A stretch of 64,000 nucleotides of DNA from Oscillospiraceae bacterium. Its GTDB lineage: Bacteria > Bacillota > Clostridia > Oscillospirales > Oscillospiraceae. Both the position numbers and the translations under genes were made by a program. The stretch lies in contig JAFTFT010000008.1 in NCBI GenBank assembly GCA_017458335.1, forward strand, positions 385-64,384, given 5' to 3'. Shown piece by piece: positions 61,220 to 61,619 of the stretch (position 1 is the first letter of the stretch; every line of letters starts with the position of its first letter). Under the pieces are notes generated by a model. It saw only the letters and a list, made by a program, of their open reading frames with translations, searched no databases and had not been told where the DNA came from.

Positions 61220-61420
61220 TCAATAGATCCTGTACATCTCGCCGACTCTGTGCAGCCCATTTTCATCCAGGTTCCCGCTGATCCCGTTGATCACTCCCGG
61301 CTGATTGGCATACTGCTTTACGAAGTGTTCTTTCGCCGCGAGCATTTCCTCTTTGCTCTCGTAGATCCCGAGAACTTCAATCGTGTTTCCGATGCACCGC
61401 TGTACTGCAAATCCTGTCAT
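61220..61420 (-). CDS. Orphan small protein (66 aa) under SAM-riboswitch control
   Basis: The protein is MTGFAVQRCIGNTIEVLGIYESKEEMLAAKEHFVKQYANQPGVINGISGNLDENGLHRVGEMYRIY. The second ATG (61420) lies 8 nt after AGGAGG; the first ATG (61426) is only 2 nt away. I recognise no family. Confidence 0.55.
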   Translation of the reverse strand: MTGFAVQRCIGNTIEVLGIYESKEEMLAAKEHFVKQYANQPGVINGISGNLDENGLHRVGEMYRIY

Positions 61421-61462
61421 TTCCATGACCTCCTATAAGAATAGAATTCTCATAAAGAGGCA

Positions 61463-61584
61463 AAGAAAAACGCCCATCGTCACGATGAGCGGTACCAACT
61501 CATCGTTCAGCCTTTAGCACCTTGCCGTCCCGGCAGGTTGCTGTGCGGTCATCGGGGCTGTCCCTCGCGCACTCTTTATGAGTT
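61463..61584 (-). promoter_or_regulatory. SAM-I-like (S-box) riboswitch aptamer plus expression platform (terminator/antiterminator)
   Basis: The minus-strand RNA is AACUCAU-AAAGAG-UGCGCGAGGGACAGCCCCGAUGACCGCAC-AGCAACCUGCCGGGACGGCAAGGUGCUAAAGGCUGAAC-GAUGAGUU. It contains the S-box core (AGAG, GAGGGA, CCCGAUGA, GCAACC, GGUGCUAA). P1 is AACUCAU/AUGAGUU. The pseudoknot is CAGCC/GGCUG. The terminator is CGCUCAUCG-UGA-CGAUGGGCG-UUUUU. The antiterminator is CGAUGAG/CUCAUCG. Confidence 0.75.
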
Positions 61585-61590
61585 GAGCCT

Positions 61591-61619
61591 ACTATATCAT
61601 GAAATCAAGGAAATGACAA
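61591..61619 (-). promoter_or_regulatory. Sigma-A-type promoter driving the riboswitch transcript
   Basis: Minus strand: TTGTCA (61619-61614), a 17-nt spacer, then TATAGT (61596-61591). P1 begins about 7 nt downstream. Confidence 0.5.

Follow-up and report, generated by a model that had tools for sequence, protein, structure and literature searches.

A 64,000-nucleotide (nt) stretch of an Oscillospiraceae bacterium genome (assembly GCA_017458335.1, contig JAFTFT010000008.1, forward-strand positions 385 to 64,384) is called the window here, and all coordinates below are positions within it. On its minus strand, at 61619-61220, lies what is probably a self-contained unit of about 400 bp, in which a promoter, an S-adenosylmethionine (SAM)-I riboswitch without the P4 helix and a small gene follow one another, and which would be OFF in the presence of SAM through two apparent locks. 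The regulation of sulphur and methionine metabolism is the textbook role of SAM riboswitches, whereas the present clade targets small orphan or accessory genes that lie on portable units, and not genes for methionine, cysteine or SAM. An earlier description of the same DNA (the original prediction) had proposed this arrangement. Computation now supplies a strong aptamer match, helices that covary among related leaders, two folds of nearly equal predicted energy, a coding open reading frame (ORF) of 66 codons and the recurrence of the whole unit in unrelated neighbourhoods.

An S-box aptamer with two possible registers

A search of the whole 64-kb window with the Rfam model of the SAM (S-box) riboswitch, RF00162, matched 61584-61497 (-), an 88-nt segment, at 65.4 bits (E = 5.8e-13). 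The gathering score of the family is 44.4 bits, and the match is far above chance expectation. This bears out the SAM-I-type aptamer of the original prediction, whose quoted minus-strand RNA is exactly this segment. The alignment spans model positions 1-108 with the 17 positions of P4 deleted and all others aligned, leaving the four-way P1-P4 junction of SAM-I incomplete. Moreover, RF00162 stays the best model for the RNA under Rfam clan competition (CL00012), and a clade-specific covariance model built in this analysis, R1, scores the aptamer at 102 bits. Related leaders were retrieved by scanning metagenomes with an exact 25-mer spanning P2 and P3, which gave 70 loci and 67 distinct leaders from one narrow clade; 27 distinct leaders make up the alignment used for counting base pairs (A3).

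All of the S-box core motifs listed originally are found in the window RNA, and AGAG, GAGGGA, CCCnAUGA, GCAACC and GGUGCnAA are shared with SAM-I leaders such as those of Bacillus subtilis yitJ/metI. P1 (AACUCAU/AUGAGUU), P2 (GUGCG/CGCAC) and P3 also read as first described. The 5' P1 strand occupies 61584-61578 and is followed by J1/2 (AAAGAG, 61577-61572), P2 (61572-61543), P3 (61542-61516) and the 3' P1 strand, AUGAGUU, at 61503-61497. P2 holds the K-turn-type tandem G.A (GA/GA) internal loop that is typical of SAM-I, GUGCG-C-GA-GGG ... CCC-GAU-GA-C-CGCAC, which is seen at the level of sequence, the kink itself being predicted. In a sister leader type (L009-L013), CA replaces GA on one side of this loop, and leaders of the L009 type also swap a G-C pair of P3 for C-G. 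The proposed pseudoknot between the P2 loop and J3/4, CAGCC/GGCUG, is present in a shorter form than claimed, with four pairs only (CAGC 61560-61557 with GCUG 61511-61508), as its fifth C already belongs to P2b. These four pairs are formed in 100% of the 27 leaders, with changes on both sides at three of the four. The AGAG of J1/2, GCAAC/GGUGC of P3 and the A-U/U-A pairs atop P1 are invariant columns in A3, and published structures assign these nucleotides as SAM contacts. By score, core, K-turn-type loop and pseudoknot, the RNA is thus a predicted member of SAM-I.

It differs from the usual SAM-I aptamer in lacking P4 in its best-supported register and in having a P1 of just 5-7 bp. The absence of P4 is already known and is not new by itself. 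The Rfam alignment includes an Actinomycetota group of natural SAM-I aptamers in which P4 is very short or missing (PMC12714719), and passages of that paper citing Trausch 2014 and Heppell 2011 indicate that P4-less SAM-I aptamers can bind and respond to SAM. The window aptamer resembles these variants in having no P4; unlike them, it belongs to a clade found in Oscillospiraceae and a Ruminococcus phage, in a different phylum. P4 was likely lost independently in the two groups, which are set apart here by phylum. In the SAM-I/IV variant (clan CL00012; Weinberg 2010), too, the core is SAM-I-like, the junction contains no P4 and a hairpin follows P1 on its 3' side. An internal loop in P2, which the window RNA has, is absent from that variant (PMC2864571), and the 3' hairpin of the window RNA is a putative terminator with a U-run. 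Membership in SAM-I/IV was ruled out on the P2 loop; a pseudoknot involving the P3 loop is also unlikely, given how freely that loop varies within the clade.

The claim that there is no P4 stands for the best-supported fold and depends on the register in which the leader is read, for the antiterminator hairpin could formally be taken as a P4. In a remote relative of the ORF (L017), the SAM match is 118 nt long and Rfam assigns a P4. The window and L017 leaders follow a common plan of 5' P1 strand, P2, P3, X, loop, X', T3 and U-run, where the window segments are AACGAUGAGUU for X, CGCUCAUCG for X' and GACGAUGGGCG for T3. In register 1, X is the 3' P1 strand, there is no P4, and X' and T3 form a terminator; in register 2, X and X' form the "P4" and T3 is the 3' P1 strand. 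Rfam alternates between the two on 20 sister leaders, with matches of either 86-88 nt or 116-126 nt, and picks the P4-containing register in five (L026, L028, L032, L049 and L057).

Considering the pairs in A3, register 1 has 95.2% of cells paired overall, and its P1 (5' P1/X) shows two-sided changes at five pairs. Pair 7-91, for example, is CG in 12 leaders, UA in 10 and UG in 5, and pair 6-92 is CG in 21 and UA in 6; the observed values for pairing and covariation were reached by none of 500 shuffles. P1 of register 2 (5' P1/T3) is 77.8% paired, with one-sided G.U changes only. The window leader itself folds at -66.9 kcal/mol in register 1 versus -60.4 kcal/mol in register 2, which is 6.5 kcal/mol worse. 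Finally, the distal X'/T3 pairs of the terminator (117-138 and 118-137) run through GC, CG, AU and UA, and because these pairs would have no role in register 2, their covariation disfavours it.

These counts bear directly on whether the RNA could be a canonical four-helix SAM-I riboswitch, with CGAUGAG...CUCAUCG as P4 and AUGGG within T3 (61476-61472), just before the U-run, as the true 3' P1 strand. The bound state would then lack a terminator hairpin of its own, and regulation would be mostly at the level of translation. Rfam does align the five leaders named above in this way, along with L017 and L093, and the J4/1-P1 consensus ACGAU is preserved within T3 of nearly all leaders. The 5' P1 strand, moreover, can pair with T3 over 5 bp in 27 of 27 leaders. 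Set against this are the one-sided changes in 5' P1/T3, the poorer fold energy, the strong covariation of two pairs left idle, and a scan that called the hairpin and U-run as a terminator. The likeness of T3 to a 3' P1 strand would be expected in any terminator/antiterminator design, as both must pair with X'. The four-helix arrangement is accordingly given an outside chance, and we conclude that the P4-less register is probably the functional one and that the "P4" called by Rfam in some relatives is probably the antiterminator. This ambiguity is a practical caution for the automated annotation of SAM-I aptamers.

Two apparent locks in the expression platform

The predicted promoter is of the σ70 type (61591-61619 on the minus strand), with a -35 box TTGTCA at 61619-61614, a 17-nt spacer containing TG and a -10 box TATAGT at 61596-61591. 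It matches the consensus at 10 of 12 positions and has an extended -10, and its predicted start lies a few nt before P1. Downstream of the aptamer, the antiterminator hairpin (61483-61505, minus strand) pairs CGAUGAG (61505-61499) with CUCAUCG (61489-61483) and overlaps the 3' P1 strand, such that this strand is common to aptamer and antiterminator as in the OFF logic of other SAM-I riboswitches. The hairpin has a stability of -9.1 kcal/mol, and its pairs covary in the clade. The intrinsic terminator (61461-61491, minus strand) consists of the stem strand CGCUCAUCG (61491-61483), the loop UGA, the stem strand CGAUGGGCG (61479-61471) and then UUUUUCUUUG (61470-61461); with a 9-bp stem containing 6 G-C pairs, a 3-nt loop, the run of U residues and a stability of -12.0 kcal/mol, it has the form of an intrinsic terminator, and the terminator with UUUUU that had been proposed was found by the scan at 61491-61471. 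Folding of successively longer prefixes gave P1 once X had been made, the antiterminator after X', and P1 with the terminator after T3, and so the antiterminator of the original prediction becomes a minimum-free-energy (MFE) element as soon as X' is transcribed.

Just past the U-run is a hairpin that would sequester the Shine-Dalgarno (SD) sequence (61429-61460, minus strand). Its left arm is CCUCUUUAUGAGAAU (61460-61446) and its right arm AUUCUUAUAGGAGG (61442-61429), the latter containing the SD sequence AGGAGG at 61434-61429. This hairpin of about 14 bp, which had been described as burying the SD sequence, has a stability of -14.1 kcal/mol and is part of the MFE fold. Within its left arm, CUCUUUAUGAG (61459-61449) is complementary to CUCAUAAAGAG of the 5' P1 and J1/2 strand (61582-61572). 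The 11-nt complementarity noted at the outset has no mismatch and gives a duplex of -14.7 kcal/mol, and 21 of 27 leaders keep a duplex of this type, located 12-15 nt past T3. There the anti-SD element changes in step with J1/2, as in AGAGAG/CUCUCU, ACAGAG/CUCUGU and GAAGAG/CUCUUC. In the SD helix, too, the pair next to the CUCU/GGAG core is C-G in some leaders and G-C in others. Hence both layers of the proposed dual control, termination and SD sequestration, are conserved and covarying in related leaders, which is evidence of a comparative kind.

The MFE fold of 61590-61415 is the OFF state, with P1, P2, P3, the terminator and the SD hairpin all formed at -66.9 kcal/mol (z = -4.4, equalled by none of 200 shuffles). 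When the fold is forced only at the antiterminator and the 11-bp duplex, an ON state of -65.4 kcal/mol results in which the SD sequence is unpaired. The two states are near-isoenergetic in the model, and the predicted gap of 1.5 kcal/mol would fit the needs of a switch tipped by its ligand.

We infer SAM binding, actual termination and a translational effect from these features, and the switch would work as follows. The aptamer would be a three-helix SAM-I core, made of P1, the K-turn P2, P3 and the pseudoknot of the P2 loop with J3/4, in which the 3' P1 strand comes directly after J3/4. When SAM is bound during transcription, P1 would hold and X' (CGCUCAUCG) would be blocked from invading it; X' would then pair with T3 (CGAUGGGCG) into the 9-bp terminator before the U-run, and transcription would stop at about 61466. 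Without SAM, X' would displace the 5' P1 strand and form the antiterminator with the 3' strand, allowing read-through. The freed 5' P1 and J1/2 strand (CUCAUAAAGAG) could now pair over 11 bp with CUCUUUAUGAG, which would be kept off the SD region, and the 66-aa ORF would be translated. The second lock would act on transcripts that escape termination with P1 closed, since these would fold the 14-bp SD hairpin and stay silent.

Because both P1 strands would serve as switches, with one lock each, a very tight OFF state is expected, and such a double lock would imply that leaky expression is costly. With P4 absent and P1 short, the affinity for SAM may be low, which would place the switching point at a fairly high SAM level. 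Control of two expression layers by one aptamer is familiar from dual-acting riboswitches such as E. coli lysC and from Rho-coupled translational switches, where RNase E or Rho acts on the translationally repressed mRNA. The window platform shares this principle with riboswitches of the lysC type; unlike them, it has an intrinsic terminator and a separate SD hairpin, coupled through the two P1 strands. A second, translational lock on the 5' P1 strand also sets it apart from SAM-I as represented by RF00162, and the wiring of terminator and SD lock to the two P1 strands is new as far as the literature search showed. The platform would offer a clean natural case of both P1 strands in use, one for the terminator and the other for the ribosome-binding site, and it is compact enough for testing in vitro and useful for switch design.

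Several points weigh against this reading. Binding of SAM by a P4-less aptamer with a P1 of 5-7 bp is an assumption, and SAM affinity is said to drop as P4 shortens (Heppell 2011, as cited in a passage of PMC12714719). The SD helix beyond its CUCU/GGAG core is paired in just 13 of 20 scorable leaders, and the anti-SD element is missing in four leaders whose cargo is a leucine-rich-repeat (LRR) protein. The counts of covarying cells, drawn from one narrow clade, partly reflect shared ancestry. T3 (CGAUGGG) hardly varies, which this reading does not explain with certainty; it uses G.U to pair with X' and, as mentioned above, would also fit the 5' P1 strand in all leaders.

Between copies the leader is 95% identical where the coding sequence (CDS) is 79% identical, with a synonymous divergence of 0.45, so the RNA is more strongly constrained than silent sites. 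This could also be expected if the terminated leader of about 120 nt acted in trans as a small RNA, additionally or even mainly, and the ORF were secondary. The Listeria SAM riboswitches SreA and SreB reportedly do act in trans in this way. One leader (L013) is intact although its ORF is broken after 19 codons, as a trans-acting RNA would allow. An ORF under purifying selection and held at 66 codons in about 90 clusters argues the other way, however, and an SD-control layer would be sensible only for control in cis. A role in trans is therefore held to be a slim prospect.

Just upstream of the riboswitch promoter, a promoter-like site on the plus strand (61696-61723) precedes a 15-bp hairpin with a T-run (61772-61806, +). 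The region 61696-61806 (+) could encode a tiny plus-strand transcript, or the hairpin could be a terminator wrongly oriented for the gene at 61826-62500 (-).

A small conserved gene on a portable unit

The ORF behind the switch (61220-61420, minus strand) encodes 66 amino acids (aa), MTGFAVQRCIGN...EMYRIY, from an ATG at 61420, 8 nt after the SD sequence, to a stop codon at 61222-61220. An in-frame ATG upstream, at 61426, was rejected as the start, as it lies only 2 nt from the SD sequence and is out of frame in the copy at locus L001. The family comprises about 90 clusters at 65-95% identity, nearly all of exactly 66 aa, and the ratio of nonsynonymous to synonymous polymorphism (pN/pS) is 0.30 over 66 pairs. 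The ORF thus encodes a real protein. The fear that the element might be a decaying riboswitch remnant before a spurious or unconserved ORF finds nothing in its favour beyond the absent P4 and the absent annotation; it is refuted by the strong model match, conservation across contexts, covariation and the pN/pS value, and retains next to no probability.

The structure prediction called for at the outset gave a confident small fold, an AlphaFold2 (AF2) model with a predicted local distance difference test (pLDDT) score of 95 and elements in the order beta-beta-alpha-beta-beta. As originally stated, this is the sole gene behind the switch and has no Pfam family above threshold. Nor did the PADLOC-DB 2.0 models yield a family at E <= 0.01 for it, for eight other cargos of the clade or for the neighbouring DUF3800 protein. 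PHROGs returned only a weak match (E 0.017), tblastn against phage records returned none, Foldseek of the AF2 model against the PDB found nothing below E 0.6, and a profile search of PDB sequences gave matches at chance level only, including an AP2 domain at E 0.5. Against BFVD, Foldseek found numerous weak matches among small phage proteins, several of which bear the name DUF7336 (TM 0.56-0.68, E 0.02-0.3). The Pfam model of that family, PF24024, was hit by 3 of 14 distant members of the 66-aa family, at best with E 8.5e-4 and 19.6 bits versus a cut-off of 25 bits; the window protein itself has no match and lies outside the family. The protein may therefore be a remote, sub-threshold relative of phage DUF7336, similar in size and fold. 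All sequence matches, of course, fall under the curated cut-off, and DUF7336 is itself a family without known function, so the link explains nothing yet.

The term orphan, applied to this gene originally, holds in that there is no recognised family, but the protein is no singleton, as there are also remoter relatives of 64-74 aa beyond the roughly 90 clusters. Some of these are encoded within small-gene operons that immediately precede an integrase and a PemK toxin, and model R1 found no aptamer beside the distant relatives in such integrase-linked operons. Three remote relatives (L017, L057 and L089) do carry the riboswitch. Among other matches of the HMM (hidden Markov model) search, two large proteins, P0101 (576 aa) and P0105 (648 aa), contain four to five tandem beta-hairpin-plus-helix units that resemble residues 4-40 of the 66-aa protein and are loosely AP2-like. 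The other large matches (P0098, P0104 and P0108) look like repeat or low-complexity artefacts.

A survey of genomic contexts showed copies of the cassette in unrelated neighbourhoods. Homology between copies begins at the promoter and ends at the stop codon, before a hairpin at 61206-61175, and wherever the DNA of a homologous locus extends far enough upstream, a SAM match is present about 80 nt before the 66-aa gene. Locus L001 has two copies 2.6 kb apart, near NERD/UvrD-type helicases and HigB; L005 adjoins HsdM/HsdS-type methylase genes, and L009 lies near Mrr_cat and Macro domains. Several other copies are in ordinary-looking chromosomal neighbourhoods, as with a LysR regulator and a flavoprotein reductase. 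A scan of genome contigs found two loci only, both in metagenome-assembled genomes of uncultured Oscillospiraceae/Ruminococcaceae. The promoter-leader-ORF unit of about 400 bp is portable, recurring in variable islands of gut and rumen Oscillospiraceae.

The same leader architecture precedes the 66/73-aa family and quite different cargo. Sister leaders were found before a 98-119-aa family and a 112-aa family, both without a Pfam family and with a common EGFTF motif, as well as before N-formylglutamate amidohydrolase-type (FGase) proteins (PF05013), BspA-type LRR proteins, several singletons and a 263-aa MetK-like protein that matches S-AdoMet_synt_N and phrog_1569 (E 1.5e-55). Relatedness of the 66-aa family (alignment A2) to the 98-119-aa cargo family (A4) was considered and dismissed at an hhalign probability of 0.3%. 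The regulated gene had been called an unusual target for a SAM riboswitch; it is indeed a small gene outside methionine metabolism, but it is not alone in this, as other non-Met genes also stand behind leaders of the same clade.

One sister leader (L093, 2996-3466) belongs to a complete phage genome, that of Ruminococcus phage NatCom_28274 (PV036439.1, about 44045-44515), where the same leader architecture precedes a 98-aa orphan gene two genes from a DNA methyltransferase. Part of this aptamer is annotated in the phage record as a "hypothetical protein" CDS. In many Oscillospiraceae phages, genes for DNA methyltransferases and radical-SAM proteins lie next to homologues of the MetK-like cargo, and R1 found no aptamer in those phage MetK-like operons. 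The exact leader pattern had 0 matches in IMG/VR viral contigs, blastn of the leader against plasmids gave none, and the 112-aa cargo had none among phage records. In a further record (L094, MT835503.1, "Bacteriophage sp."), an aptamer stretch precedes a 91-aa orphan ORF and is flanked by TrpB-like and aldo-keto-reductase-like genes, for which reason this unverified "phage" scaffold looks bacterial. Rearranged leaders were also seen: L081 has lost X' to T3 by deletion between the X and T3 repeats, L069 has the same segment duplicated, and in L047, L059 and L088 the 5' half of the aptamer is fused to other sequences or genes.

In the window itself, the cassette lies in a low-GC variable region adjoining a tRNA-Ser gene, in line with the island location first suggested. 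GC content falls from about 0.60 to 0.45-0.50 in this region, beyond tRNA-Ser(CGA) (52615-52705, +, after a MurC-like gene) and a backbone of SRAP, an S24-HTH repressor-like gene, an ImmA/IrrE peptidase and a small zinc-ribbon-like ORF (52992-55596). Locus L001 shares the SRAP/S24-HTH/ImmA-IrrE backbone and carries different cargo. The terminator said to bound the 66-aa gene is present as a G+C-rich 12-bp hairpin (61175-61206) between this gene and the convergent DUF3800 gene, but its T-run is on the plus strand only, so it is a terminator in form for the DUF3800 gene and merely a hairpin for the 66-aa gene. Directly upstream of the DUF3800 gene (60400-61074, +) is a DUF3800-XI RNA motif (RF02975, 60317-60364, +, 40.3 bits versus a cut-off of 37.8). 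A 105-nt direct repeat of 78% identity (59581-59685 and 62852-62956) encodes the C-terminal motif DYAHPDxFYYDYYxDFWDxEDxExYWExHH in two ORFs (59569-60198 and 62699-63100, both minus strand) that flank the cassette, and acidic/aromatic proteins of this kind adjoin it in L001 and L046 too. A 58-nt direct repeat of 93% identity (58241-58298 and 59496-59553), internally palindromic (CCGGCCTG...CAGGCCGG), brackets a PDDEXK_2 transposase-family gene (58365-59228).

Possible roles of the cassette

One way the cassette could serve its host is as a defence sensor, in which a phage SAM lyase or another drain on SAM would open the switch and the 66-aa protein would be a toxin or a trigger of abortive infection. 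The low-GC variable region beside tRNA-Ser would suit such a role, as would the helicase and HigB genes near L001, the HsdM/HsdS-type genes near L005 and the Mrr_cat and Macro domains near L009; the cost of leakage implied by the double lock and the resemblance of the fold to small DUF7336-type phage proteins point the same way. PADLOC, however, had no match for this or other cargo of the clade, several copies are in ordinary-looking chromosomal surroundings, and one sister leader resides in a phage genome and not in a host island. On balance, a defence sensor is considered quite unlikely.

Another way would be to tide mobile elements and phages over a shortage of SAM, for instance by sustaining their own SAM-dependent DNA modification, with the 66-aa protein modulating an enzyme that uses or makes SAM. 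That one sister leader drives a MetK-like protein is suggestive here, particularly as its homologues in Oscillospiraceae phages lie directly beside DNA methyltransferase and radical-SAM genes. The phage leader L093, the methylase genes at L005 and the operons in which distant 66-aa relatives occur with an N6_Mtase gene would agree with this as well. The association is nonetheless a handful of anecdotes: the phage MetK-like operons are themselves without the aptamer, and the FGase and LRR cargos are no obvious fit. Help at low SAM is for these reasons rated as doubtful, and the two roles fit the genomic contexts about equally poorly. The best guess, made with low confidence, is that the product may be an accessory protein of mobile elements, needed only at low SAM.

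A full-text literature search, of incomplete coverage, found no paper on SAM riboswitches before small orphan genes in islands or phages, and a regulon in which portable units carry small orphan genes and genes of phage type is new as far as found. What stands out is a SAM riboswitch on a portable unit of about 400 bp with an orphan gene, whose closest sisters drive non-metabolic or phage-type genes, one of them in a Ruminococcus phage. It is conceivable, though improbable on present evidence, that portable SAM-I cassettes of Clostridia from gut and rumen, and of the phages of these bacteria, couple the SAM level to small effectors of mobile elements, either as triggers on SAM drain or as protectors of DNA modification. 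If so, host-parasite conflict and not metabolism would be the setting in which a metabolite riboswitch serves as a sensor, and should restriction-modification, phage SAM lyases or methylation be what the products act on, RNA-based metabolite sensing would be linked to the conflict between bacteria and their mobile elements.

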